Under the pieces are notes generated by a model. That model was not told where the DNA came from. It searched no databases and worked only from the letters and a program-made list of their open reading frames with translations. From NCBI GenBank assembly GCA_019038625.1, contig JAHOYU010000077.1, positions 3,703 through 67,702 on the forward strand: 64,000 nt of DNA. Reading direction: 5' to 3'. Of the stretch, positions 1 to 63,488 are shown piece by piece; the first letter of the stretch is position 1; each line of letters begins with the position of its first letter. Source of the stretch: Candidatus Latescibacterota bacterium (GTDB lineage Bacteria; Krumholzibacteriota; Krumholzibacteriia; Krumholzibacteriales; Krumholzibacteriaceae). The position numbers and the translations under genes are program-made.

Positions 1-228
1 CAGGGGAATGTGACTGCGCTCGAACAACGTCCCTACCGTCACCGTAAACGGCTTGCGACAGTGGCCGCACTTGTACAGTCCAGGGCGTGTAGACTTACCC
101 TCAAGCTTGTAAGCCTTGTCCATACCGCCGCAATGTGGGCAGACAACGCCATCAGGCCAGCGAACCTTTTCAAGGTACTCACGTGCCGCCTGTTCATCAT
201 GGAAGTATTGCGCGGAAAGTTGGCTCAT
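1..228 (-). CDS. IS1595-family (ISXO2-like) transposase, N-terminal 76 aa only; the gene runs off the left edge
   Basis: Reverse-complement translation from ATG at 228 gives MSQLSAQYFHDEQAAREYLEKVRWPDGVVCPHCGGMDKAYKLEGKSTRPGLYKCGHCRKPFTVTVGTLFERSHIPL. It has the zinc-ribbon CPHCGG...CGHC and the TVTVGT motif typical of the N-terminus of IS1595-family transposases. AAGGAG RBS at 236-241. It is absent from the ORF track because no stop codon lies within the window. Confidence 0.7.
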   Translation of the reverse strand, partial: MSQLSAQYFHDEQAAREYLEKVRWPDGVVCPHCGGMDKAYKLEGKSTRPGLYKCGHCRKPFTVTVGTLFERSHIPL

Positions 229-231
229 CGG

Positions 232-837
232 TTACTCCTTGAAAGGATTACCATCGGGTGATTTGCCTTTTAAGCATGCAACTGAATTCCAAAGATATTC
301 GCGGTCTTTATCTGAAAGATTTTGATCGCATTTCAGGGTATCAACTATCTGCCCTTGGCGATCCCAAATCTCTTTGAGTAGGGGAATTCTTCCTTCAAGT
401 ATTTTTAGTCGCTCAAGATTAAGTTGATCCAATTGGGCTTTAAGCTGTTTCTCTTGGGTTTCAAGTTGTTGGATTTGAATAGATAAATGCTTTTTATCAG
501 TTTTAAGCCGTTCTGACTTGATGGTGAGTTCATCATAGCGAATTTGCAGAGTGTCCTTTTCGGATTGAATTTGACTTAAGCGATCTTCACTTTCCTGTTT
601 GGCTTTTAAATCGAGGGCTTTATGAAATTGATGAAGGCGGATAAGAGCGGCGACAACTATGATTGTCAACGCGATGTATGCCAAAGTCGATTGGCTAAAA
701 TATATCAACGCCGCTACAATGGAATTGCCAATTCCAAGAATGAAATAAAGGCCATGTTTAAACTTGTCCGGGATGATACCGGTCTGAGCTTTTGGGCTGG
801 GGTTACTATTTGCAATCTTTTCCATGTGTTGCTCCAT
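232..837 (-). CDS. membrane-anchored coiled-coil protein (two predicted TM helices, then a long heptad-rich region)
   Basis: 201-aa ORF. Hydrophobic segments LYFILGIGNSIVAALIYF and IALTIIVVAALI are followed by a K/E/Q/L-rich coiled coil. Promoter-like element just upstream at 843-900. A diverged truncated copy lies at 57353-57652. The stop overlaps the RBS of the transposase gene. Confidence 0.55.
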   Translation of the reverse strand: MEQHMEKIANSNPSPKAQTGIIPDKFKHGLYFILGIGNSIVAALIYFSQSTLAYIALTIIVVAALIRLHQFHKALDLKAKQESEDRLSQIQSEKDTLQIRYDELTIKSERLKTDKKHLSIQIQQLETQEKQLKAQLDQLNLERLKILEGRIPLLKEIWDRQGQIVDTLKCDQNLSDKDREYLWNSVACLKGKSPDGNPFKE

Positions 838-842
838 AGCTT

Positions 843-900
843 GAAAGGTCTATTTCCAATATACATCCTTTGTATCTGGTATGTCAAGTATATAATCGCC
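843..900 (-). promoter_or_regulatory. sigma70-like promoter (TTGACA, 18-nt spacer, TATATT) reading leftward; copy 1 of a repeated element that begins GGCGATTATATACTTGAC
   Basis: The reverse complement is ggcgattatatacttgacataccagatacaaaggatgtatattggaaatagacctttcaa. It is nearly identical to 57279-57338, and its first 23 nt recur inverted at 58047-58064. Confidence 0.5.
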
Positions 901-2427: not shown

Positions 2428-2730
2428 ATGATGGATTTATCAAAGCTCAATAAGCTGCTCACCCTGCCGCCGTGGGAATGGGAGGGCATGTGCTTAGTGA
2501 ATCAAGAAGGCGAAACAATTATTGAGGCGGCCCATCCGTCATACGCTACTAATCTCGAAGAATGGAAGCCGTTACTCGCCGCCGCCCCTGACCTGCTGGC
2601 AGAGGTTGAGAAGTTGCGGGAGAAGTTGGCGCAGATAAGCATCTGTGCCAGCAACGCTCAATATGGTCGGCTGGATATGAATGAGGCCATGAGCAGCATA
2701 GCCAAAGCCGCAAAACTGGAGTGTAAGTGA
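2428..2730 (+). CDS. hypothetical early protein; paralog of 63174-63488
   Basis: Shares the M(M/I)DL(S/T)K..PW N-terminus and the AAAPDLLAEVE(K/R)LR segment with the 104-aa ORF at 63174-63488. ATGATGG overlap with the upstream stop. Confidence 0.55.
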   Translation: MMDLSKLNKLLTLPPWEWEGMCLVNQEGETIIEAAHPSYATNLEEWKPLLAAAPDLLAEVEKLREKLAQISICASNAQYGRLDMNEAMSSIAKAAKLECK

Positions 2731-21898: not shown

Positions 21899-21937
21899 TT
21901 TTTCAAGCGCTCCTGCAGTCGCTATCTCCCTATGCGC

Positions 21938-21983
21938 CCAATATCGCGCAGGGATTTTCTCAACTGCTTGCCAGGGTTAGGCA
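21938..21983. repeat. 46-bp direct repeat, copy 1 (intergenic, between the giant gene and the tail fiber gene)
   Basis: aatgcgcccaatatcgcgcagggattttctcaactgcttgccagg is repeated exactly at 22087-22132, where it encodes the last 15 residues of the giant protein. Confidence 0.7.
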
Positions 21984-22085: not shown

Positions 22086-25000
22086 CTATTTCTTAATGCG
22101 CCCAATATCGCGCAGGGATTTTCTCAACTGCTTGCCAGGATCAGGAGGCTTTGGGAAAACAGGAGATTCCCGAACCGGAACCGCCTTAAGTTCGGGATTG
22201 ATTTTCCTCTGCTCCTTGATGAACCGACTCTTAACGGACTTCGCAGTTTTCTTCTCCATTGACCCATCCGCGACAGCCCTATCCACTGCACTCTTGAAAC
22301 GCTCCCGCTCTCCTGCGGTAAACACGGTGGTCGCCGCATCGTCCAACATACCGTAGACAGTTTGCTTACTCTTACCAGGATAAGGTTTACGGTAAAAACG
22401 GCGCATCACGGGTATAAACCGCGTTTCTATCTTTTCATCAGTTGCCAGTGAGATGCCGGTAGCCACCGAATTGCTGACAAACTTCCCAATTCCACCGCCC
22501 AGGAAGTTGATCGTGTGGTCAATATACTCAGGGCTGACATCCGCCGCACCGAAAGGCTTACGCTGCGTAGCGGTCTTCTCTGCCAACCAGCGAGTGAATT
22601 CCCTTGTGGATGGGCGCACGCCCTTGAAATATAACTGGTGCCGTGGCTTTTTAGGCCCATAGGCCGGTTGATCTGGTGCCACAGGGCCACCGAAAAATGT
22701 TTTATTTGTAGCCAACTGCACCGGCAGATCAAGGGCAGTCGGTGAAATGATCTGTGTCAACGGGCCACCGCCAACAGGACTTGCAGCATCGGCCACCGCG
22801 CCCACCATCCTGGCCGCGAGTTTAACTGGATCAGGGTTATTGCCTAATGCCATTTCTGCCGCCAGTCCACCGAGCGCCCAATAGACGTTAAGCCCGTAAG
22901 GCAACGGTACGCTCAATGTTCTGCCGCCGCCAAGATGCCAAGTAGCGTTCTGATCCTTTTGGAAGTCGGCCACTTCCTCCCAATCGTCAGGATCGATCAT
23001 GCGATTCTTTAACTCGTTGAGAAATGCGGTGGCTATGATAAGGCCGATCAGCGCCTGTGCCCTTACCTGTCCTGCCGTCTTAGGCTTACCGGGGATGCCG
23101 ATTGTTCTCAAATTACGGGCTATGCCCTGAATCGTAGCATTTGAGAACAGGTACAGACTGTTCAATATCCTACCGATTTCACCTTTTTTATTAAAGTTGA
23201 CGGTCACGTTTTTAGCATAACTCGCGGCCACTTCCTTTGTCGCGCCAGCACCCTTAAGGTGATGGTATACCGACAGGCGGATACCGCTCTCCACCATCTC
23301 ATTGTAATCCTGTATTAATTGCCCAAGGACTTTTATCGGTGCGACTATCCGACCTTTACCCGTGTAAGAGCGCACCTTGCGCTCAAGCTGTTTTATCCTC
23401 TGCTCCAACGGCTTGTTGTCAAACCAACCTACCTTACCGCCAGTAGCCTTCAAGTCCTCATACTCAGCAGCCCAACCTTTATCCGCATCACTTCTGATGT
23501 TACCGCGCACACCGTTGATAGCCGCAGGTAGTGAGGCAAGTGTCTTAGTCGCCAGCTTAAATCCATGATCGGAAGTGATATGGAATGTGGCCGTGGGGGT
23601 ATCCCTGATGAAGTTGAAGATCGGGAATACGGGCGAAAACGTTGTTATTACCCCGCGCTGTATGGTGTTAAACAGTTCAAGCGCACCGCCGATTATGGGC
23701 ACGGTACTCTCTGTACCTAAGCTTTTCATTGCACGGGCGAGAACCACATCCCTGATAGTCACCTCTATGGTCTTGCCCTCTTCCTTGACGGCAAATATCT
23801 CATGCGCATAATCACTCGCCGGATCACGAAACGCAATCTCTCCCTCTTCGTTTATTGTCGAAGGGTTAAAGACCTCCTTGGCATCCCAAAGCGGATGAGG
23901 ATTGTTGCGCACGAACTCAAGGAACGTACTGGCTACCTTGTTCTTTTCCTCGCGCATTACCGCCTGCTCGTAGTCTACGATGGCCTGCACGAATGGATTG
24001 TCCGCAATCGACCAGCGCCCATGTGCCCGCTTAATGGACTTCCCGCTTACCGAGAATCCCTTACCGATACCACGATAGGCTTTCTTACCCGCCTTACCCT
24101 TGAGCGGTACGTAATAATTGTACTGGTCCTTATACTTCTGGTAAGCTTCTTCTGTGATCTCACCATAGTCACGGTAACGTTCGAGCGTCACGTTGATAAT
24201 CTTCTTACGGAACTCATCGGCAAACTCTTCTATGCCCGTACCCTCGTAACGATCCAGAACAACAGCAGCCTGGTTTAATGATATACCGGCCCCGAAAGTA
24301 TCATCCCGATCCTCAAGCCTCGCACTCAGCTTCGCAAGTTCCTTTTCAGCCACCTCTGGCGTGATAACCCCAGCCTCAAGCTGTGCGTTAAGATCGTCAA
24401 TCATCTCTCCGTACTTAGCCTGACGGCGTTCGGCGGTGTGCTTCGCGTACATGAACCCACCGAGTTTGCCCACACTATATCCAGCTTGAGCCAAGCGCAC
24501 CATGAACGACTTCCTGCCCTTGGTCAGAAAATCCTCAAGTTTATCAAGCTCGTGCGACACTCTGCCGGGGAACAACTCTGCGGCCAGCCGCGTATCCTCT
24601 GTCTGCGGAACCACATCATAAGCTTTCTGGATTGTCTCTATTCTGTTCAGCTTATCGACTACCACGCGCACAAACTTCTCCCTGTTTGTCTCATCATCAA
24701 TCTGAGGAATGGTGCGCTCAAGATCAGCAGAGACATCGGTGCGGGCGAAGCGCAACCCCTGCTCTGCGGCCACCATCTGCCGCTCAAGCTCTGCGATCTT
24801 CTGCAAGTAACGCATCTGTATGTTTTCCGTGCTCACCCCGTTGCGCATCGGCGGTAGGTTAGCCAACAACTCTGATACCTGCTGTATCTCCTTCTCTATG
24901 GCAACAGGGTCAAGGGTACGGGCGAACAAAGGCTGACCAGCCTCTCTCTCCGCTCTCTTGCGCCCCATACTCGCCCTCAGAGCATCATCGAGCAACACCC

Positions 25001-40533: not shown

Positions 40534-41439
40534 TCAAGGAACTGCGCCAGCAGCAGGATTAAGCACACCGCTAAGATTGATCACATGAGAGGCGAAGTTC
40601 TGACACACGAAAAAATCATTCGTGGCCGCAAGTGGTGCAGCGGTGTTCAAAGGACATTGTAAGTAGTTGTCGTAAATCGCTCCAGTTGCAGAGCTATCCG
40701 ACTTGATGCCCAGTACCAGACCGGCATCCAAATCGATATTTACGATGCGGTTGTTGTGTATCCGAATATTGGTCGAGTTGCCTGTAAGATGATCGATGAC
40801 CGATGCCGAGCAATCAACATGCCACTTGTTGTTTCTGATAATGCAGGTGTCGCTGGTTCCGGTAAAAAAGATCGAACTGGTCATCGCACCAGCGCCAGTA
40901 ATAAAGTCACAGCCCTCGATAATCACATTGGCGATAGTGGTAGCGATATCGACATGCTTCTTAAAGTCCAAAGCCGCCGTATCCCTGAACACACAGTTAC
41001 GGATAACCGTTCCATCAGCAGCGGCAGCAAGATCAATTGCCTGCACGCAGTCCGCAATACCAGACGCGAACTTCAGGTTCTCAAGCACCGTATTAGCCAC
41101 GGTAATCATCACCGCGCCAGCGGTGGCAGTCGATGTAAATGTGGGAACCCTGTTGCCCTGGCCAAGACCCCTGATGGTCAAATTGGCAACATCAACGGCA
41201 AAGATAGCCGCAGTAGACAGGTTCTCGGTATGGCCAGCCGCAATCAGAATCGTATCACCAGCCGTAGCCTTGCCGATAGCAATGTCGATTGTAGCATAGG
41301 GGTTGTCTTTCGTACCCCTTCGGGTAGTACCGCTATTCGCATCAACCCAGATCACCTTATTCCCAGAGCCGGGTATTTGATTCATGGGAAGCTCTTTTAC
41401 CGCAGCATCCCCGCTTATTACACTTGGGAAACTACTCAT
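40534..41439 (-). CDS. right-handed beta-helix (pectate-lyase-like) protein, candidate spike or depolymerase (301 aa)
   Basis: NLTIRGLG...TVIRNCVFRDTAALDFKKHVDIATTIANVIIEGCDF... shows typical parallel beta-helix rungs. The C-terminal about 250 aa are paralogous to 41483-42781. Confidence 0.55.
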   Translation of the reverse strand: MSSFPSVISGDAAVKELPMNQIPGSGNKVIWVDANSGTTRRGTKDNPYATIDIAIGKATAGDTILIAAGHTENLSTAAIFAVDVANLTIRGLGQGNRVPTFTSTATAGAVMITVANTVLENLKFASGIADCVQAIDLAAAADGTVIRNCVFRDTAALDFKKHVDIATTIANVIIEGCDFITGAGAMTSSIFFTGTSDTCIIRNNKWHVDCSASVIDHLTGNSTNIRIHNNRIVNIDLDAGLVLGIKSDSSATGAIYDNYLQCPLNTAAPLAATNDFFVCQNFASHVINLSGVLNPAAGAVP

Positions 41440-41482: not shown

Positions 41483-42781
41483 TTAGATAGTATCAGCGCC
41501 AGGCTCTAACACACCACTGACATTGATAGTGTTGGAGGCATAGTTCTCGGACGTATAGTAATCAGCCGTAACGGCAATAGGTTCGGCATCAGTTTTGGGC
41601 GACAAGCAGTAGTTATCGTAGACCAATCCCGTTCCGTCACCGGAAGAATCAAGGCCAAGTACCAGGCCGGCCCCAGTGTCGATATTAATTATTCGATTAC
41701 CGTAAATCGCAATATCGAGCGGATCGTCAGCCAAGTGGTCAATGACACCAGCCGAACAGTCAACATGCCAGAAGTTATTACGGATAATGCAGTAAGAACT
41801 CGTCCCGGCGAAATCAACAGATTCTGTCATCCCACCGGCAGCGGTAGTAAAATCACAGCCCTCAATAATGAGATCGGTAACAGTTGTGGCGATATCAATG
41901 TGTTGCAAAAAGTCCAGGGCCGCACTTGAATCTCTGAACACACAGTTACGGATAACAGTACCGTCTGCGGCGGCGGAAAGATCAATCGCGTTTGCGCAAT
42001 CAGTGATGTTGGACACGAACTTCAAGTTCTGAAGTGTCGTATTCGCGGCTGTAATCATCACCGCGCTAAGTTGTGCGGTGGTGGTAAATGTCGGTATCCT
42101 CTGGTTTTCACCCATACCTTTGATGGTCAACCCTGCGGTACTCACGTTAAAACCTACCGCAGTGACATACGCACCGTTCATCGGTATGTAAAGTGTGCTC
42201 GGAGTGGCGGCAGTAGTGCAGATGCCGTCAGGATCAGCGACCGTCCCGATAGTAATATTGCCAGAAGTCGCGCTGCCAACATAGACCGATGTAACGGTCT
42301 TGAATTTTTGGGTGGTATAGACGGTGCCAGAGGACGCGGGGCCAACTCGCGCCTCGCTAACAGGTTGGCCCCTGCCATTCGTACCGGTGATGGTAAAGGT
42401 GTCGCCAGAATCGTTTTGATCACTTGTGATCCCTACGACACATTCAGTCGCCAGCGTTGCCACTACCGTAAGATTCTCGGTATGCCCGGCTGCAATCATT
42501 ATCGTATCGCCGGTCTTGGCCGCAGCGATGGCCGCAGCTACAGTAGCATACGGTCTAACGTATGTCCCGTCACCGCCCTTAGCAGCGTTAACGTCAACCC
42601 ATAGAACTTTCTCTACCGGGCCGACAAGAGGCTGAATGGGCATGTTCAGAATCGACACGCCGTCACTAAAGCCTTCTGGGTAATTTGAACTATACATTAT
42701 TTCTCCTACGGACGCTCGTAGCGCCCCTTCGGGATAACCCGTAGTTCGTGATTGAAAGCTAATGGTACGGCAGCCGGTCAA
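41483..42781 (-). CDS. right-handed beta-helix protein, paralog of 40534-41439, with an extra N-terminal module (432 aa)
   Basis: The C-terminal domain aligns with the 301-aa neighbour (TVIRNCVFRDSSAALDFLQHIDIATTVTDLIIEGCDF). The N-terminal part carries the FKTVTSV module. Confidence 0.55.
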   Translation of the reverse strand: MTGCRTISFQSRTTGYPEGALRASVGEIMYSSNYPEGFSDGVSILNMPIQPLVGPVEKVLWVDVNAAKGGDGTYVRPYATVAAAIAAAKTGDTIMIAAGHTENLTVVATLATECVVGITSDQNDSGDTFTITGTNGRGQPVSEARVGPASSGTVYTTQKFKTVTSVYVGSATSGNITIGTVADPDGICTTAATPSTLYIPMNGAYVTAVGFNVSTAGLTIKGMGENQRIPTFTTTAQLSAVMITAANTTLQNLKFVSNITDCANAIDLSAAADGTVIRNCVFRDSSAALDFLQHIDIATTVTDLIIEGCDFTTAAGGMTESVDFAGTSSYCIIRNNFWHVDCSAGVIDHLADDPLDIAIYGNRIINIDTGAGLVLGLDSSGDGTGLVYDNYCLSPKTDAEPIAVTADYYTSENYASNTINVSGVLEPGADTI

Positions 42782-49423: not shown

Positions 49424-49706
49424 CCATGATTAAACGCTCACGTTCCTTAAGCGCGGCAATGGCATCTGCGAATGACCGGTGTATGTGATCCTCATGTATG
49501 CGTAAACCACGATTGTTGCAGCCATCCAGGCGCAACATAATCGCATCAAAGATTTGAGTTGGAATATCAAGCGTTTTTGTCCAACGTATTTTAGCAGCAT
49601 CTATTTTAAGTTCTATGGGCCGACCTGCCCTTTGTAAGCCTTGCCCGCTTATTCCTACTATTTCATTGTAACTGCCCTTGGGCCATCCATCATCGTATTT
49701 CGGCAT
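49398..49706 (-). CDS. hypothetical protein (102 aa)
   Basis: ORF between the terminase and portal genes. Confidence 0.4.
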   Translation of the reverse strand: MPKYDDGWPKGSYNEIVGISGQGLQRAGRPIELKIDAAKIRWTKTLDIPTQIFDAIMLRLDGCNNRGLRIHEDHIHRSFADAIAALKERERLIMVEWKKKGR

Positions 49707-49710
49707 CTTT

Positions 49711-49998
49711 TCAGCCTTTCTGAGTTAGCAGCTTTTGTGCGATCTCGTTGGCTGGTACGGTTAAGTCACCGTCTCTTAGTATCTTATCTAAAAGTATACC
49801 GGGTAGGCTACCGCACATTTCTACCGTACCAACATTGGGGCTATTCTTTTTGAGAGTCGTCTTATAAAACACCACCGCCACACTATCACCTGCAAGATGT
49901 ATCTTAAAATCCCCACTTGCGTAACTGGCGAATGGCTTTATTGTATGCTGCGAATTTGGTAATCTAAACGCTTCTGGTTTAATCTTCTTCCAGGCCAT
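49711..49998 (-). CDS. hypothetical protein (95 aa)
   Basis: ORF. Confidence 0.4.
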   Translation of the reverse strand: MAWKKIKPEAFRLPNSQHTIKPFASYASGDFKIHLAGDSVAVVFYKTTLKKNSPNVGTVEMCGSLPGILLDKILRDGDLTVPANEIAQKLLTQKG

Positions 49999-50065
49999 CG
50001 TCTAACTCTCCTTCACGATTTCAAGCCAGTCTTTGAACTTAAACAGCAGTTGGCGGCTGCAAGCA

Positions 50066-50383
50066 TTAGACGGTTATCTTGTCAACGGTCTTTCCCTGTT
50101 CGTTCATCACGTAGACTGTTGCCGGTGGTTCGATGATAAACGACTTCATGCTATCCAGATCAAGTCTAAGCGCGAAACTCGGCTTTACCTTAACATCACC
50201 ACAAAAGGTTGTAGCCCCCGCTTCTTCTGGGGTACTGGCCCTAACGTAGTTTTGTATATTCTGGTGATTCACACAAGTTGCTTCTCGCATTTTAGTCTCC
50301 ACCAGTTTCTGAGCCGGTGGATTACTACCAGCTTCTGCTGTGTTCTCCACTTCTTGATACAACTCGATCTTGATCGTAAACAT
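50066..50383 (-). CDS. hypothetical protein (105 aa)
   Basis: AAGGAG RBS before ATG at 50383. Confidence 0.45.
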   Translation of the reverse strand: MFTIKIELYQEVENTAEAGSNPPAQKLVETKMREATCVNHQNIQNYVRASTPEEAGATTFCGDVKVKPSFALRLDLDSMKSFIIEPPATVYVMNEQGKTVDKITV

Positions 50384-51673: not shown

Positions 51674-54229
51674 TCAGTACCCACTTATAGGGCTTTTGCC
51701 CTTGTCGCGTTGACGGTGGAGTGCCGCATGTCGCCTGTGTTGCAGGCTATCCTTGTAAGTTTTGTTCTCGCGCCTCTGGTATTCAACCGGCTTTATCCTG
51801 AAAGCAAAGGTCTGGGCCAGCGCATCTCCAAAGTCCGGGCTGTCAAGTTCACGCGCCTTCATATGCTCCTTGCGCTCCAACTGTATCTTATCCGCAACGC
51901 TAAAGCCATACTCGATAGATGTCAGGTCTGTTTCAAGGTAATCGTACTCGCGCTGCTCCAGGCCACTCAGGTCTGCGGTCTTCAGCCATTCGCGCATGTT
52001 TCCCCACATCTCGGCCCGCTTATTGAAGTATTTCTTCTTGCTTGACCGGCTACCCGCCACAACGGAGAACCAGCGGCACTTAAGCTGCCTGCCACGATCA
52101 ATGACACCTGTCCCCGGCCCTGTCTCATCGATAAACACGGCATCGGCACCGTATTCGTCTTCAGCGTCCTGCACCAAGCTAACAATTGTCATGTTATCAA
52201 GCTCTCGATACTCGCGTATCTCCAGTATTCTAAGTCCCTGCCTTATAACAATAACAGTCCTGTCGTCACCGAAACGGGCTACATCAACGCCTATCACAAT
52301 AGGCGAATCCTTGTAGAGATCGTAATCAAGCTTCCGCTTACGGGCCTCTTCCACCCAATCAAGGGCAATAAACTGCATTGAACTTGCGCGCGGAAACTCA
52401 CCCTTCACCCTGACCCTCACAAAATCGCTGTCTTCTCCGTAATCGTCTATCCACTCCTGGATAAGCTGTTTCTCGGCCTTTTTCGCCGTCCTGCTGTCCA
52501 CCTTGAAAGTCACCCAACGCTTGCGGAACTTCGTCCAGCAGGCTCTAAAGCGGCCCACGTTTCTTGTCGGGTTGCCGAAACATATCCAGATAGAGCCGGT
52601 TGTGGTCATGGCACCGCTGGCCACCTCCCATATCTTGTCATCGATAGCACTCGCCTCATCGAAGATCATCAGCACGTTTTCTTCGTGTGTACCGGCAAAC
52701 GCCTCTGTATTCTGCTTGCTCCAGGGTGCGGCGGTCATAAAGTGCGTGGTAGGGTGTTCGATTGCGCGGAACTTGGTGGCAGTCCATTCAAACCAATGCT
52801 GGTTGATAACCATCTGGTGCCACTTCGATAGCTCCATCCATGTCTTGTCGGTCAACTGCATCTTGGTATTGGCGGTCACAACGGCCTTGATCGGTGTCCG
52901 CGTGGACATGAACCAGAGGATAATCCAGGCTACAAGGGCCGTGTTGTGTGTGACGATGAAATCATTTGCCAGATATAATTGATCCTCAGCCTCAACAGTT
53001 ATACACATGCATTCTGCTTCACCGGCAAGCTCCACGCGATCAATAAACCTTTCCAGATATCGCTTCTGTGATGTCGGCCTTATTCTCTCTGCCTTGCGCT
53101 TAATGTAGCACGGAGTAAATCCGTCTGGAAACGTCAAGGAACACAAGTAGGCTCCGTTATGCGTCTTACTATGCAGTCTTGCCTTCCCGCCGATGGAACG
53201 AGTTAGCCATATCACGTCTTCGATGAGCAACTTAGATACAGAGCAATATTGAGCACATCCAGTATCAGAAACATATCCATCGGTGTCCATCAGGCCACGT
53301 AGCACCTCTTCGCGCACCTCACGGAGATTATACTTATAAATATCGGGCACATGTTTTTCTCGCGCACCACACTTGTCAACGCCGAGTCGCTCCAACGCTG
53401 GTCGCAAATGTCCCACATTAAATACCTTTGCCTTCGTCTCTCGCTTGCTTTGCCCCTCGGTGAGCCTATAGCGCGCCGAAGCGATGCGCTCAAACACCTC
53501 AGCGTCCATATTTGTAATACGGCTTGTATTTCGGCAACCATCCCCCAGCCATGCGCCCAGTGTATACGGATCAACATTGACCCACTGATATGGATATTCT
53601 ACCGCACCATGACGCGGTATTTGGAATCTTCGTGCGCGCCCCTGCCCGTTTTTCCGCCGCGGCCCAGTTTCGGCGATCTCAGCAGTGCTCTTTGTTTCCC
53701 AATCTTTTCTGCGCTCTTTCACAAGCCATAAGTGCTCGGCGCACGTTAAGGTGCTGCTTTCATCGTCAAATATCACTCGATATATTGGCTTGATGCCCTG
53801 TGGGTGAATTTGTGCAATTCTTGTAGGCTTTCCGTCCCTACCAAAGACGGTATCTCCGGGCTTCAAATCTCCCCAGCGCCGTACACCGGTTGGCGTGTCC
53901 AGCTTCATATCAGTTGGATGCGCTTTTCCTGCCCCGTGGCCGCTGCTGACGGCCATCTGGATAGCGCGTGTTATGTTCCCATCTTTGCGCTTGAGCAGTT
54001 CTTCACGCAGCAGTCCAAGAAACTTGGTCTGCCAGATATCCGGCCCTGTCTCTTTTTCGAGAATAGTGCCCGATCTGCCCCAGGGAAGCGCCCACATGAC
54101 AAAGCCGTAAGGGTCATCCTTGAAGCTCATTATCTTCAAGGTCAACTCTTTCTCGTTCAACTCCGCCTTTGCCGCGCCATCGTGGTGCGATCTGCCTGTA
54201 GATTGGGCATGTGCTGTGGCCTCACTCAT
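51674..54229 (-). CDS. terL: terminase large subunit interrupted by a 327-aa intein
   Basis: Walker A is split: ...VSSGHGAGK | intein | TALVAWIILWF..., which reconstitutes GHGAGKT. Downstream terminase ATPase and nuclease pattern (...TTTGSIWICFGNPTRNVGRFRACW...). The extein is about 524 aa. Confidence 0.8.
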   Translation of the reverse strand: MSEATAHAQSTGRSHHDGAAKAELNEKELTLKIMSFKDDPYGFVMWALPWGRSGTILEKETGPDIWQTKFLGLLREELLKRKDGNITRAIQMAVSSGHGAGKAHPTDMKLDTPTGVRRWGDLKPGDTVFGRDGKPTRIAQIHPQGIKPIYRVIFDDESSTLTCAEHLWLVKERRKDWETKSTAEIAETGPRRKNGQGRARRFQIPRHGAVEYPYQWVNVDPYTLGAWLGDGCRNTSRITNMDAEVFERIASARYRLTEGQSKRETKAKVFNVGHLRPALERLGVDKCGAREKHVPDIYKYNLREVREEVLRGLMDTDGYVSDTGCAQYCSVSKLLIEDVIWLTRSIGGKARLHSKTHNGAYLCSLTFPDGFTPCYIKRKAERIRPTSQKRYLERFIDRVELAGEAECMCITVEAEDQLYLANDFIVTHNTALVAWIILWFMSTRTPIKAVVTANTKMQLTDKTWMELSKWHQMVINQHWFEWTATKFRAIEHPTTHFMTAAPWSKQNTEAFAGTHEENVLMIFDEASAIDDKIWEVASGAMTTTGSIWICFGNPTRNVGRFRACWTKFRKRWVTFKVDSRTAKKAEKQLIQEWIDDYGEDSDFVRVRVKGEFPRASSMQFIALDWVEEARKRKLDYDLYKDSPIVIGVDVARFGDDRTVIVIRQGLRILEIREYRELDNMTIVSLVQDAEDEYGADAVFIDETGPGTGVIDRGRQLKCRWFSVVAGSRSSKKKYFNKRAEMWGNMREWLKTADLSGLEQREYDYLETDLTSIEYGFSVADKIQLERKEHMKARELDSPDFGDALAQTFAFRIKPVEYQRRENKTYKDSLQHRRHAALHRQRDKGKSPISGY
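52943..53923 (-). mobile_element. intein with a LAGLIDADG homing-endonuclease domain, inserted after the Walker A lysine of the terminase
   Basis: Begins AHPTDMKLDTPTG... (Ala at position 1). Block B-like TCAEHLW. Two LAGLIDADG motifs, LGAWLGDGC and LRGLMDTDGYV. Ends ...FIVTHN, followed by the +1 Thr of the extein. Confidence 0.7.
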
Positions 54230-56078: not shown

Positions 56079-56616
56079 AATTCACCCCCCGCTCAAGAGC
56101 CTCACGCCAGCAGCTAATGAAGTAGGCCGCTGCCTTCCGGTTCTTCATCGCCTCAAGGATATCGTTCTCACTCCCACCAGGCGGTATGTACGAGTTTTGC
56201 CCGCTGATTTCATTGTGGTTGCCGTACAGGGCGGCGGCAAGGCCGAAGCTGGTGAAAGCATAGTAACCGGGGCCGACATTGACGTTCATATCCATGCGCA
56301 TCAGGTCGTAGCAGCGCAGCAGAACGTCTATCCATACCTTCTTCAACTCCGGTAGCCTTCTGTATTGCTCGTAGGGAATGAGGATAAGCGCCTCAAGATC
56401 GGTGAGAAACTGGCTGACGCGGCCAAGGGCTTCCGCTCCCATACCCTTGTGTGCGTCATCAGGGAGATCAAACGCGGCCTTCACGCCATCAAGGGTTTCT
56501 GAACGCCACCAAAATTCGGCGGCATCTCTGGGTATCGTGCCTATCTGGCTTGTATATCGATCTACAACCTCTATCGCTTGCTCACGTGATGTTTCTGGTG
56601 CTCCTACGATTTCCAT
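56071..56616 (-). CDS. hypothetical protein (181 aa)
   Basis: ORF only. Confidence 0.45.
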   Translation of the reverse strand: MEIVGAPETSREQAIEVVDRYTSQIGTIPRDAAEFWWRSETLDGVKAAFDLPDDAHKGMGAEALGRVSQFLTDLEALILIPYEQYRRLPELKKVWIDVLLRCYDLMRMDMNVNVGPGYYAFTSFGLAAALYGNHNEISGQNSYIPPGGSENDILEAMKNRKAAAYFISCWREALERGVNCD

Positions 56617-56641
56617 TGTCTGTTCTCCCCTTTAGGAGTGT

Positions 56642-56851
56642 TTAGCCTATCAGAACCTTCCAGATCAGCAGCACAAGGCAATAGCCGACACAGGCTACCG
56701 CCACCACGGCGAGAATGAACTTCGCCAGCACCCACCAGAGGACATCCATGACCAGCCGCTTGAGGTCAAAGTGAATGGGGTACATCATGCTCACCGCCTC
56801 TTCCTGAATAGCGCCCGTATCTGGTTGGCACTTTCGGCGGCAACGAGACAA
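56642..56851 (-). CDS. small membrane protein (69 aa)
   Basis: VLWWVLAKFILAVVAVACVGYCLVLLIWKV transmembrane helix. Confidence 0.4.
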   Translation of the reverse strand: MSRCRRKCQPDTGAIQEEAVSMMYPIHFDLKRLVMDVLWWVLAKFILAVVAVACVGYCLVLLIWKVLIG

Positions 56852-57144
56852 AATCCGGCATCCTGTAGCCGGTATTGTACCGTCCGCAGTACATTATCCC
56901 GGTTGAAGTAGACCTCAGTCCTGAGTTCCATAATATCGTTGCGAAGTTTCAGGATATCGACTTGGTTTGCATCGGGCTGAAGAGAACCGCCACAGGAGAG
57001 AAGCGCAGCCCAGCCAACGAACACTCCGGCCAGAATCCAGACGCAGACAGCGGTGGTTATCAAGCCTGACTTTATATTGGCGGTCACAACAGCCTCCCAA
57101 GGAAGATACCCACCATAATGCAGACAACCCAGATTGCGGGCCAT
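56791..57144 (-). CDS. membrane protein (117 aa)
   Basis: LITTAVCVWILAGVFVGWAALLS transmembrane helix. Confidence 0.4.
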   Translation of the reverse strand: MARNLGCLHYGGYLPWEAVVTANIKSGLITTAVCVWILAGVFVGWAALLSCGGSLQPDANQVDILKLRNDIMELRTEVYFNRDNVLRTVQYRLQDAGFCLVAAESANQIRALFRKRR

Positions 57145-57278
57145 ATCCAGAACGGAACCCTTCTTACTTCTCGGTATTCTTTCACATCAACCTCCCTCTG
57201 GGGTTATTTGTAGTGCCTGTAACCATCACAAGCGCCGTTGTTGTGCATAGACCGTTAATCTACGCACCGCTAAATATG

Positions 57279-57338
57279 GCGATTATATACTTGACATACC
57301 CGCCGCAAAGGATGTATATTGGAAATAGACCTTTCAAG
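57279..57338 (+). promoter_or_regulatory. promoter, copy 2 of the repeated element (TTGACA 57291-57296, 18-nt spacer, TATATT 57315-57320)
   Basis: 57 of 60 nt identical to the reverse complement of 843-900. Confidence 0.5.
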
Positions 57339-57352
57339 CTACGGAGTATCAA

Positions 57353-57652
57353 ATGAATGACAGTGGCAAAAAAACCACCGAGAAAGAAACCAAGAAGGCC
57401 ATCCCCCCGGATAGATTTAAATATAGCCTCTTTTTTGTTTTTGGGATAGGCCAGGTTGCTATTACAATACTTCTTAGCAATGGGAATCTCTTGTTGGGCT
57501 ACATTGTCGCCGTGATTGTTATCGCCGGAGCAATTATCCTTTTCAATGGGCATGGTAACGCACTCCTAATAAAAGTAAAACAGGAAGCCGAAGATCGTTT
57601 AAGACAAATCCAATCCGAAAAGGACACTCTGCAAATTCGCTATAAGGTTTTT
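57353..57652 (+). pseudogene. truncated, diverged copy of the 232-837 membrane coiled-coil protein gene
   Basis: Protein and DNA similarity (for example caatccgaaaaggacactctgcaaattcgctat) runs to ...EKDTLQIRY and then is lost. The ORF continues as unrelated sequence to 57862. Confidence 0.5.
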
Positions 57653-57726
57653 TTACAAGTCCCAATCCAACCCATTTCATCACATGCCCTTACTGCAAGG
57701 GCGAAGGCTGTAAAGACTGTGAAAAT

Positions 57727-58011
57727 TCAGGATTGTTTTATGATCCCCGTAAGGATTTTGAATAATCTGTCTGCAACGCGCCAAGCGGCTGCATGTTCCA
57801 AATGTAGAATTAAATTGCCGTCTTCTCTGTCATCTGGTGCTTGTAAAACACCACAGGTATGATTTGTTCGATAGGCAACGAGTTCGCCCAATTGCCATGC
57901 CCGCGCATCACCCTCATTGTCATTATGTTCATCTTGTATCAGTTCACCGTTAGCCTTAACATGCTGGAATATCTCAATTACTTGCTCAATCTCGTTCTTC
58001 TTGCCTTTCAT
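57727..58011 (-). CDS. hypothetical protein (94 aa) inside the MITE-like element, driven by the inverted repeat copy at 58047-58064
   Basis: RBS GGGGGATAAAACGATG. Overlaps the 3' end of the truncated plus-strand ORF convergently. Confidence 0.4.
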   Translation of the reverse strand: MKGKKNEIEQVIEIFQHVKANGELIQDEHNDNEGDARAWQLGELVAYRTNHTCGVLQAPDDREDGNLILHLEHAAAWRVADRLFKILTGIIKQS

Positions 58012-58075
58012 CGTTTTATCCCCCTGTAGCGTTGAAGGCGAGGTACGTCAAGTATATAATCGCCATTAATTTTGA

Positions 58076-58492
58076 CTACTCCCCAAGGTGCGCCCTGATC
58101 TCTGCCTGCATCTTGGCCTTGCTGGTAGCGCCCTTGCTCAACTCGCAGCCAACTTCCACGGCCCTGGCCTTGAGTCTCTTGCCCGTTGTCTCTGTGGGAT
58201 CAACGTCTTCAGGCTGTACTTCTACCGGCTCCGCCTTCACCGCATAGATTTCAGCGGCGGCAAGCACAACCTCCACCGGCCAGCCGTTCAGGCGGTGATA
58301 CCGCGTTTCCCGGCCCTCTGCGAGTGTTGACCGCTCAACATGCAGACACTGCACGGCGTTGTCCATGAAAACCAGATGACAGAGTACGCCAGGGCACCCC
58401 ACGCGCTCAAACGAGGCATCGGGGGTCACGATATCACTATCGTGGAACGGCCTGAAGTCTACGGGTTCATCCAATCGCTTAAACATCTTCAA
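58076..58492 (-). CDS. hypothetical protein (138 aa)
   Basis: ORF only. Confidence 0.4.
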   Translation of the reverse strand: MKMFKRLDEPVDFRPFHDSDIVTPDASFERVGCPGVLCHLVFMDNAVQCLHVERSTLAEGRETRYHRLNGWPVEVVLAAAEIYAVKAEPVEVQPEDVDPTETTGKRLKARAVEVGCELSKGATSKAKMQAEIRAHLGE

Positions 58493-58516
58493 GCTCCTGT
58501 TAAGGTAATGGGTTAG

Positions 58517-58837
58517 TTAGGGCAGGGTATAGCCGAGCGTTGTGCTCTTACTGCGCGTATTGGCTATCTTTCGTATCCGACCATTAATACCAACCACGTG
58601 ATACTCCCGCCAGATTACGCCAGAGGTGGTTACAGTAGAACCCAGAGGCTTCACCTCGACCAACCGTCCGATAATCCTTTCGCTCTCACCAATGGGCCAG
58701 TTCTTTCCGCGATTGACCGCGTATAGCTTCCCGCTTCGGAGACCGGCAAAGAACGGCTGATGCATTACCTCATGCCCACTGCGTACCCTCGTTTCCCACC
58801 AGACACGCAAGCGCTGTAGCGGTATCGAGATTGTCAT
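58517..58837 (-). CDS. hypothetical protein (106 aa)
   Basis: ORF only. Confidence 0.4.
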   Translation of the reverse strand: MTISIPLQRLRVWWETRVRSGHEVMHQPFFAGLRSGKLYAVNRGKNWPIGESERIIGRLVEVKPLGSTVTTSGVIWREYHVVGINGRIRKIANTRSKSTTLGYTLP

Positions 58838-59097
58838 TTAATGCGCTCCCATTCCATATGAATCGTTCTGATTCTTTGGAGGGTAAGCTGGCAGTTGTCG
58901 CCCCATGTACCAACTGCTACCGGCTGCTCATTGGGATATATTGTATCACAAACGACAAGGCCGTACACTTTGCCGTTGGCTGTCGTGTCGCACGCCAGAT
59001 ACCTCTCTATCGAACGACTTGACAGCTTGGTGGTGGTGATAACGCACCACAATATAATTATGGCGACAATCGTTAATGGTACAACACAATTTTTCAT
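58834..59097 (-). CDS. small membrane-anchored or secreted protein (87 aa)
   Basis: N-terminal hydrophobic VVPLTIVAIIILWCVITTT. Confidence 0.4.
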   Translation of the reverse strand: MKNCVVPLTIVAIIILWCVITTTKLSSRSIERYLACDTTANGKVYGLVVCDTIYPNEQPVAVGTWGDNCQLTLQRIRTIHMEWERIK

Positions 59098-62553: not shown

Positions 62554-63181
62554 CACTCCTTTCCAGCAGAGCGGCACGTCTGCATTTCCACACATCGGCT
62601 GAAGCCATATTAGAACCGTCCACGCTAAATATTTCATCGACTATAGTGAGTAAATACCGCACCTCTTGCGTTGGTGTCATTCCCCAAATATTCTTCTCTG
62701 CGCTCGGCCCGGCGGGCTGGCCCTTTGTAGTATATGTTGCCTCAAAAATATCCCTCTTGCAGGGGTACAATTCGCCTTTAATCCCTCGGATTAAAACGTC
62801 CTTGTCGGGATCATACTTATGAGTACCCTCAAGTGTATTAATCTCAAGGGGCGCTGACGGGACGGCAAATTCAACCTGCACGGGCCGCTTCACACACTTT
62901 AACCATTCAGCAGATTCTACGGCCTCACGAACCTCAGCTTCTCTTGCGGCCATGTAGTCGGAATATCCGTCACTCATTGTCATCCCCTTTAGGTAAGCGG
63001 CAACATCCCTCCTGTACCAGTTACACTCTTGGCGCATCAGCTCCCGCAGCAGGGCGTTGGCAAGGCGTTCAACCCCAGCCTCAAGCTCTTTGATGCGGGC
63101 ACGGCCAGCGAATAGCTCACAGTACGGACAACCTTCAAATATTACTCCATCGTACCTGCCATGCTTATCACATTTAGCCAT
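62549..63181 (-). CDS. hypothetical protein (210 aa) with an N-terminal zinc-ribbon (CDKHG...CPYC)
   Basis: ORF only. Confidence 0.45.
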   Translation of the reverse strand: MAKCDKHGRYDGVIFEGCPYCELFAGRARIKELEAGVERLANALLRELMRQECNWYRRDVAAYLKGMTMSDGYSDYMAAREAEVREAVESAEWLKCVKRPVQVEFAVPSAPLEINTLEGTHKYDPDKDVLIRGIKGELYPCKRDIFEATYTTKGQPAGPSAEKNIWGMTPTQEVRYLLTIVDEIFSVDGSNMASADVWKCRRAALLERSE

Positions 63182-63488
63182 CTTCGCCCTCCAGTTCTGC
63201 GGCAGCTAACTGTTGCGCTTTCTCCAGTACAAGCAATGGAACCATGCCCTTGAGGTTGGCTATCCCTTGAAGTGTAGCTCGTAGCCGTTCAACCTCTGCC
63301 AGCAGGTCAGGGGCGGCGGCGATGAGGCGGGCGTTAGCAACACTTTCTGTTGCCCCCGATACACAAGCCAATTCCTTGAATATTATCTCTCCTTTTGAGT
63401 AAGCATCAATAGCGTAGCTTCTGCCCAAACACATCTCAGCCTTCCACGGCCCTGGCGTGTGGCCCTCAAACTTTGTCAGGTCAATCAT
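63174..63488 (-). CDS. hypothetical protein (104 aa), paralog of 2428-2730
   Basis: MIDLTKFEGHTPGPW...AAAPDLLAEVERLR shared with the plus-strand gene at 2428. Confidence 0.5.
   Translation of the reverse strand: MIDLTKFEGHTPGPWKAEMCLGRSYAIDAYSKGEIIFKELACVSGATESVANARLIAAAPDLLAEVERLRATLQGIANLKGMVPLLVLEKAQQLAAAELEGEDG

Follow-up and report, generated by a model that had tools for sequence, protein, structure and literature searches.

A 787-bp segment of phage DNA, at positions 57278 to 58064 of a 64,000-nucleotide stretch from Candidatus Latescibacterota bacterium (assembly GCA_019038625.1, contig JAHOYU010000077.1), carries at its two ends the inverted repeats (IRs) of an insertion sequence (IS) of the IS1595 family and encloses no transposase. 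We consider it likely that this segment, referred to below as the cassette, is an IR-bounded derivative of an IS1595-family "transporter" IS in which a phage accessory gene, orf94, became joined to the inverted IR, and that it arose by internal deletion or illegitimate recombination. A transposase-bearing copy of the same IS group lies at the left edge of the stretch (positions 1 to 900). The whole 64,000-nucleotide stretch, called the window throughout, belongs to a 70,917-bp contig of a metagenome-assembled genome (MAG), whose proteins include MBU8921225.1 and MBU8921294.1. It is phage DNA, with genes for a portal protein, the large and small terminases, a head-closure protein, a RecE-like exonuclease and a 2178-aa polyvalent protein.

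An inverted terminal motif bounds the cassette

The motif GGCGATTATATACTTGAC(A/G)TACC was found three times in the window, at 878-900 on the minus strand, 57278-57300 on the plus strand and 58042-58064 on the minus strand, where no occurrence would be expected. The 23-mer GGCGATTATATACTTGACATACC is exact at the first two of these sites and has a single mismatch at the third, and it had no match in any of 100 shuffles of the window. The copies at 57278 and 58064 are inverted relative to each other and enclose 787 bp. The cassette IR is therefore 23 nt long with one mismatch, or 25 nt at 96% identity if two flanking bases are counted. The first 18 bases are exact at both ends, and 22 of the 23 positions are alike. 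Compared with the corresponding repeat of the left-edge copy (IRL), the cassette IRs are identical at 23/23 and 22/23 positions. The tip of the element is placed at the first G because target duplications across the family relatives described below fix it there, which sets the unit at 57278-58064. Contigs from an independent assembly (Logan, run SRR14477300) show both the right junction at 58064 (L001) and the junction at 900 (L016).

A first-pass annotation of the window had described an inverted terminal motif at both ends of this segment and the same repeat at the left edge, and the motif scan bears out both, including the coincidence of the boundary of the 878-900 copy with the motif tip. 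Its right end for the segment was correct. Its left end, 57279, was one base off, so that the unit is 787 rather than 786 bp, and the terminal repeat that it had put at 27 bp measures 23 to 25 nt.

The motif is the terminal repeat of a cargo-bearing IS1595-family element

The family was surveyed by an exact scan for the first 18 bases of the motif in IMG/VR viral contigs and bacterial genomes. This 18-mer was present in 14 IMG/VR viral contigs and at 120 or more bacterial genome loci, which, among the matches listed, are mostly from Alphaproteobacteria, with Chloroflexota, Acidobacteriota, Verrucomicrobiota and others also represented. It usually occurs as an inverted pair. In 58 of 64 pairs the 8-bp flanks are identical at 7 or 8 of 8 positions, and three further pairs resemble 9-bp duplications. 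The elements range from 33 bp to 5.2 kb, most being 2.0 to 3.5 kb, and almost every one longer than 1 kb encodes an open reading frame (ORF) of 300 to 325 aa that starts 42 to 77 nt from one tip. The products of two of these ORFs, from L066 and L015, match PF12762 DDE_Tnp_IS1595 (1e-41 and 2.6e-27) as well as PF12760 Zn_ribbon_IS1595, and the L066 protein scores 224.5 bits on the NCBIfam model NF033547, "IS1595 family transposase" (cut-off, 75). The IS1595 family is defined by a transposase with an N-terminal Zn_ribbon_IS1595 domain and a C-terminal DDE_Tnp_IS1595 domain (PMC8101967). Elements sharing this IR have the two-domain transposase and also the 8-bp target-site duplication (TSD) of the family.

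The motif is thus the terminal IR of a cargo-bearing IS1595-family IS and not a phage-specific promoter. The first-pass annotation had taken it for a genuine transposon end, of which further copies should exist, and the TSD-flanked elements at these many viral and bacterial loci uphold that view. Relatives of this transposase were found in 478 plasmid records, and among 50,697 GenBank phage records in only three short uncultured contigs, whose matches are fragmentary and distant (at most 32% identity).

Apart from the transposase, the content of the group is highly varied: 107 ORFs of at least 90 aa fell into 79 clusters, among them PIN, DUF3800 and DUF1828 proteins. Because these diverse cargo ORFs fill the space beside the transposase, the group matches the transporter IS concept. 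Some cargo recurs as two-gene modules, for example a PIN protein downstream of a ~270-aa protein (L057, L063, L066 and L094); these may be addiction or defence modules.

Transposase-less or truncated derivatives with perfect TSDs also occur in viral contigs (L014, 375 bp; L002, 829 bp; L009, 40 bp), and small derivatives of the family therefore do transpose elsewhere. The smallest possible derivatives of the group, of 33 to 42 bp, consist of two inverted IRs only within perfect 8-bp TSDs (L009 9805-9844, L044 1619-1651 and L058 3549-3590). We also noted an identical 2123-bp element, together with its TSD (ATCGTATC), in L010 (1598-3720), a 54,985-bp contig classed as viral in IMG/VR, and in L064 (931-3053), a 54,779-bp contig of an Acetobacteraceae MAG. 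The two are probably the same prophage or plasmid, so that among the "viral" hosts of this IS there may be elements that are integrated or misclassified.

The IR carries the -35 box of an inward promoter

Within the family, TTGAC in the IR is followed at 16 to 18 nt by a TAnnnT -10 element at 48 of 56 transposase-proximal ends, at 15 of 56 distal ends and in 16% of controls. Since this arrangement is enriched at the proximal ends, the element's own promoter takes its -35 from the IR and is directed inward. The IR itself is exact at the proximal end in 54 of 57 elements and at the distal end in 12 of 57; because the search required one exact end, the contrast of proximal with distal ends is all that these counts can show.

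The promoter that the first-pass annotation had placed at the left end of the cassette is present, as a strong sigma70-type sequence, TTGACA-18-TATATT, that matches the consensus at 11 of 12 positions. The same sequence occurs at the 900 end of the left-edge copy (positions 887-858; 11/12). At the right end of the cassette (58064), no inward promoter using the IR's own TTGACG as the -35 passed the scan. The sites seen there are a weak inward hybrid, TAGTCA-16-TATACT (58078-58051; 9/12), with TAGTCA in the flank and TATACT in the IR, and an outward site, TTGAAG-17-TATAAT (58032-58060; 10/12). Across the family, outward -35 scores were no better than those of a random control, so outward firing is not a property of these ends. 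Two proposals of the first-pass annotation suffer on this point. That the terminal repeats fire into the flanking genes is not supported, the promoter of the IR being directed toward the gene inside the element, and the proposal that a 94-aa ORF in the cassette is driven from the right end is weak, with the hybrid 9/12 site as the only inward candidate.

A transposase-bearing copy lies at the left edge of the window

The leftmost ORF of the window encodes the N terminus of a protein 36 to 74% identical to the N termini of the 300- to 325-aa transposases from elements with the same IR. Together with its PF12760 match (E=1.7e-17), this agrees with the first-pass annotation, which had taken the ORF for the matching transposase. 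A Zn-ribbon N terminus beside a family IR identifies the copy as an IS1595 element. The ORF begins three bases past the stop codon of the cargo gene mem201, which separates it from the IRL. Such placement of cargo between the IR and the transposase is uncommon in the family and not unique, a small ORF being found there in L002, L015, L075 and L111. A homolog search with the 76-aa N terminus returned only fragments, at 75% identity or less, and the first 40 bases of the window had no match in a metagenome scan. The sole homolog of the mem201 product among 5.8 billion proteins was itself (MBU8921225.1). The GC content of mem201 is 39.5%, against 51.1% for the window.

Immediately outside the tip of this copy lies the C-terminal part of an HNH endonuclease gene, residues 2-44 of which align to positions 56-97 of the 196-position phrog_3377 profile. 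The gene was probably disrupted by insertion of the IS or by an IS-mediated (adjacent) deletion.

The left part of the cassette is a diverged, mosaic copy of the IS cargo end

The left part of the cassette aligns, inverted, with the promoter and 5' part of mem201 as two blocks, of 177 nt at 73% identity and 88 nt at 84%, and the protein encoded there by mem-prime, a truncated paralog, shares 49% identity with the mem201 product across 82 residues. In the nucleotide alignment of the two cargo copies, the IR is identical at 23 of 23 positions and is followed by six bases of which four differ. The copies then agree throughout a 36-nt block that contains the -10 and the leader, the membrane-helix region falls to about 55 to 60% identity, and the final 74 nt of the shared region are about 90% identical, including 34 nt that are exact. 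Homology then ends abruptly at 57643, and the mem-prime ORF continues to 57862 without it. Synonymous sites are conserved within the identical patches. The first-pass annotation's duplication of the mem201 promoter and first 100 codons is therefore real in this left part, while the near-identity that it described is confined to patches, namely the 23-nt IR and the 36-nt and 34-nt blocks.

The mosaic could possibly have come from short gene-conversion tracts; constraint on a leader or operator sequence is a possible reason for retention of the 36-nt block. Elsewhere in the window, the paralogs at 2428-2730 (plus strand) and 63174-63488 (minus strand) have 44% protein identity, yet they share a perfect 34-nt stretch, which forms a perfect inverted repeat (2576-2609 and 63289-63322) over a distance of 60.7 kb. 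This patch, too, may reflect short gene-conversion tracts. The phage also encodes a RecE-like exonuclease.

The right part of the cassette holds a phage accessory gene with a homolog at a different site in a sister phage

When three transposases of the family were used as tblastn queries, the only match in the whole window was at 1-228. The cassette thus has both IRs and no transposase and is non-autonomous, as the first-pass annotation had called it. Its GC content is 42.7%, compared with 52.5% in the flanks.

The convergent 94-aa ORF described by the first-pass annotation, orf94, does exist in the right part of the cassette, where its upstream region meets the right IR within about 10 bp. 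It is not native to the IS. Its one homolog, P0003 (83% aa identity), is on L208, a 6.6-kb contig from marine sediment (SRR1555744 / ERZ940452). L208 is a sister phage, with 83 to 93% nucleotide identity to the window in the large terminase (TerL) gene, in the genes that follow it and in the beginning of the portal gene. Its orf94 homolog and two very small membrane ORFs make up a 630-bp accessory block between the TerL-downstream genes and the portal gene, flanked by homologs of window positions 50043-50137 and 49694-49998. A search for the IR near this homolog, degenerate copies included, found nothing above chance. Because L208 carries the homolog elsewhere and without an IR, orf94 is a phage accessory gene and not a native part of the IS. 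In the window it lies about 8 kb from the slot equivalent to that in L208, inside IS ends.

The two halves of the cassette are separated by filler with no homology to either. A plus-strand frame at 57646-57765 reads GFFTSPNPTHFITCPYCKGEGCKDCENSGLFYDPRKDFE followed by a stop (including ...CPYCKGEGCKDCENSG...), with a DnaJ-like CxxCxGxG zinc-finger motif and no start codon. It had no relatives among the DNA sequences compared, and its tail is the antisense of orf94; the frame is either a gene remnant or a chance occurrence. The features of the cassette, the left-edge copy and the corresponding slot are collected in Table 1.

Table 1. Coordinates of the annotated features in the window
Feature	Position	Strand	Basis
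IS1595-family transposase, first 76 codons, cut by window edge	1..228	-	PF12760 E=1.7e-17; 36-74% identity
Cargo gene mem201 (201 aa, two transmembrane helices and coiled coil), between IRL and transposase gene	232..837	-	ORF; weak coiled-coil Pfam matches only
IRL of the transposase-bearing copy	878..900	-	Exact 23-mer, then TTGACA-18-TATATT at 887-858
HNH endonuclease gene, C-terminal fragment starting exactly at IS tip, without ~55 N-terminal residues	903..1055	+	phrog_3377 E=5.5e-15
Slot that holds the 630-bp block in L208; 44 unrelated bp in the window	49999..50042	-	blastn synteny and alignment
Left terminal IR of cassette, transposase-proximal (IRL) type, with -35 box TTGACA	57278..57300	+	Exact 23-mer; 18-mer fits family IRL consensus; tip from TSD-flanked relatives
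Inward sigma70-type promoter TTGACA-18-TATATT, -35 within IR	57291..57320	+	11/12 consensus match; same layout in 48/56 relatives
mem-prime, truncated diverged paralog of cargo gene 232-837 (two predicted transmembrane helices, start of coiled coil)	57353..57643	+	49% aa identity
Non-homologous filler between the cassette halves	57644..57726	.	Three-frame translation
orf94, phage accessory gene (94 aa), enclosed by IRs	57727..58011	-	ORF; 83% aa homolog P0003 in L208
Right terminal IR of cassette, 22/23 versus left IR	58042..58064	-	Motif scan and inverted-repeat search

Origin of the cassette

In the explanation that we favor, the transposase-proximal end of the IS would account for the left 366 bp, with its IR, sigma70 promoter, conserved leader and a diverged cargo paralog of about 100 codons. 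In the right ~340 bp, orf94 would have been joined to a second, inverted IR at a distance of no more than about 10 bp. Either one full-length copy or a pair of copies would have undergone an internal deletion or illegitimate recombination that took out the transposase and brought in orf94. Deletion or capture of this kind is the most likely route to the present arrangement. The ends of the cassette are intact, and the left-edge transposase could in principle still mobilize it in trans. Nothing indicates, however, that the 787 bp have moved as a unit.

Several observations weigh against this explanation. The flanks of the cassette, CTAAATAT and ATTAATTT, match at only 5 of 8 positions. Such a match has a probability of about 0.03 between random pairs and of 0.16 when the 8-mers are AT-rich, so that in AT-rich DNA it is no better than chance; shifting the comparison or varying its length between 7 and 10 never gave k-1 or more matches. 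No second copy of the cassette was found in the window, in IMG/VR or in the JGI metagenomes. The two cargo copies are mosaic, and a simple history of duplication followed by deletion does not explain their identical patches. Without an outgroup, either arrangement of orf94 may be the ancestral one. For the left-edge copy, which is only putatively autonomous, the part of the transposase after residue 76, the distal IR and any TSD lie outside the window. The first-pass annotation had set a mobile element, with a target duplication at its flanks and further copies of the unit, against a segmental duplication with no defined ends. The outcome falls between the two: the ends are well defined, yet there is no TSD and one copy.

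An inversion between the two window copies was considered as the cause of the missing TSD and rejected, since the reverse-complementary flanks that it predicts (TTAGAAAG at 901 versus the cassette flanks) do not match. The lineage that combines this IR, promoter and cargo appears to be narrow in the collections searched: a 29-mer specific to it had no match in the JGI metagenomes, and an 18-mer had one match in IMG/VR (L210), which on reading was an unrelated chance match. The closest relatives in IMG/VR had TerL proteins of at most 54% aa identity, the 138-aa flank protein had no relative there, and the GenBank phage collection gave no nucleotide match to 56500-59000. L208, the one close relative, does not span the cassette site. 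In the right flank, the stretch 58061-58079 (plus strand), GCCATTAATTTTGACTAC, has a weak resemblance to a second IR of opposite orientation that directly adjoins the first; in a gapped alignment its score was reached by 69 of 2000 shuffles. It may be what remains of a junction between two IRs or of one more insertion.

The main rival to a deletion or capture origin is that the segment is not a unit at all. Its IRs would have been left by two separate, facing IS insertions trimmed by deletions, with orf94 being resident phage DNA trapped between them. Flanks that do not match are what two insertions would leave, and the patchwork content (an IS end, unrelated filler with a zinc-finger-like fragment, and a phage gene that L208 also has) agrees with it, as does the IR-like stretch in the right flank, a hint of repeated insertions. 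We nevertheless regard it as unlikely. It needs two insertions and at least two deletions that spared orf94 and left about 10 bp before an intact IR; both IRs are intact and point inward; GC is low across all 787 bp; and in the sister phage orf94 is about 8 kb away and not at the cassette site. At the other extreme, the cassette might be an active miniature inverted-repeat transposable element (MITE) or mobile insertion cassette (MIC) that recently transposed here as a unit, mobilized in trans by the left-edge transposase, much as the first-pass annotation had suggested. The exact 18-nt tips, the single difference between the 23-nt IRs, the N terminus of a cognate transposase in the same genome and the perfect TSDs of small family derivatives (L014, L002 and L009) all speak for it. 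Set against these are the absence of a TSD at any offset, when 58 of 64 family members have one, the absence of a second copy anywhere searched, and a cargo paralog only 49% identical to that of the putative master copy and hence not a recent derivative. We consider recent transposition improbable.

Two further explanations dispense with the transposon or with the locus itself. If the motif were an early promoter or operator, conserved in the phage and employed at three sites, with the left half of the cassette an ordinary, tandem-free gene duplication, its consensus -35 and its position upstream of genes at all three sites would be accounted for. The same 18-mer bounds transposase-encoding, TSD-flanked elements at more than 130 unrelated viral and bacterial loci in several phyla, however, and the proposal is effectively refuted. 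Misjoining of the MAG contig at repeats is very improbable. The contig does come from a metagenome bin, and an independent k-mer assembly of the same run breaks within the repeated blocks (L001 ends at 57614, and L016 starts at 843). Against an artefact, those independent contigs reproduce the junctions of the IR with the right flank at 58064 and with the HNH gene at 900, and exact repeats of only 23 to 36 nt would not lead an assembler of paired reads astray over 56 kb. Finally, there is a small chance that active cargo-bearing IS1595 ends capture phage "moron" genes and shuffle them between intergenic slots, the cassette being a snapshot of orf94 moved about 8 kb from the TerL-portal region.

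Other features of the host phage

The large terminase gene of the window (51674-54229, minus strand) encodes 851 aa, of which relatives align over about 470, and residues ~298-379 give weak matches to LAGLIDADG and homing-endonuclease profiles. By these sequence signs it probably holds an intein. TerL of L208 (569-3226, 885 aa) also bears Hint/LAGLIDADG marks. The middles of the two genes (52976-53931 in the window and 873-1924 in L208) share no nucleotide homology, while the regions on both sides are 88 to 90% identical, which suggests that different inteins may occupy the same TerL site in the two phages.

Two direct repeats were also found. A 60-nt repeat of 90% identity (21922-21981 and 22086-22145, spaced 164 nt) lies at the stop-codon (3') end of the gene for the 2178-aa polyvalent protein and just downstream of it. 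A 201-nt repeat of 72% identity (40981-41181 and 41930-42130) lies inside the adjacent minus-strand genes 40534-41439 and 41483-42781, which are probably tandem paralogs.

Comparison with known systems and significance

IS1595-family elements with passenger genes have been termed transporter ISs (Siguier, Gagnevin and Chandler 2009, as cited in PMC3129680 and PMC8101967; see also PMC7986276). The relatives that share the IR of the cassette resemble them in their 8-bp TSDs, their single two-domain transposase and the extra cargo inside the IRs. The 787-bp unit differs in having neither a transposase nor a TSD; the left-edge copy differs in that its cargo lies between IRL and transposase, when most relatives carry it downstream of the transposase; and the host replicon here is a phage. 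Within IS1595, the ISNwi1 subgroup of ISfinder has ends of the form ggnnatTAT, 8-bp direct repeats, passenger-gene variants and a DDEK+ER4 signature. The IR start (GGCGATTAT...), the 8-bp TSD and the 2- to 5-kb cargo variants fit the first three of these features, which makes ISNwi1 a candidate assignment and a lead only.

Two classes of non-autonomous element also invite comparison. MICs such as MIC231 of Bacillus cereus, which is mobilized by IS231 (De Palmenaer et al. 2004, as cited in PMC3129680), are flanked by TSDs, and experiments have demonstrated their mobilization in trans. Like them, the cassette has IS-type IRs that enclose coding sequence (orf94 and mem-prime) and no transposase, with a cognate transposase elsewhere in the genome. 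It differs in having no TSD and one copy, and in that half of its content is a truncated gene. The MITE concept (PMC3129680), under which the first-pass annotation had placed the cassette, applies insofar as the cassette is non-autonomous and its terminal IRs match those of an IS in the same genome (23/23 and 22/23). The cassette is 787 bp long, holds a 94-aa gene and a fragment of about 100 codons, and is single-copy without a TSD. MITEs are usually shorter, do not code for protein, occur in multiple copies and have flanking TSDs. The true miniature relatives of this IS family are L014 (375 bp) and the 33- to 42-bp elements of L009, L044 and L058. The cassette is thus not a MITE in the usual sense, and "mobile-insertion-cassette-like remnant" fits better.

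Neither IS1595 elements nor ISs with cargo, MICs or MITEs are new (PMC3129680, PMC8101967); the less usual feature is the phage as host replicon. Insertion sequences are rarely seen in phage genomes, and this type of transposase is common on plasmids and bacterial chromosomes; in the phage described here, an IS1595 copy with cargo and a transposase gene is accompanied by a cassette that has no transposase. The 18-mer GGCGATTATATACTTGAC reliably marks this IS group and the inward promoter that goes with it. At present the cassette is a fairly ordinary remnant, a well-documented case of a class already known, and of use in annotation. If it is mobile, it would offer a concrete route by which small accessory genes move around phage genomes and by which phages ferry IS cargo between hosts. 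If IS1595 ends do capture and shuffle phage genes, IS-derived cassettes would carry accessory genes from place to place within a phage genome and from one phage to another.

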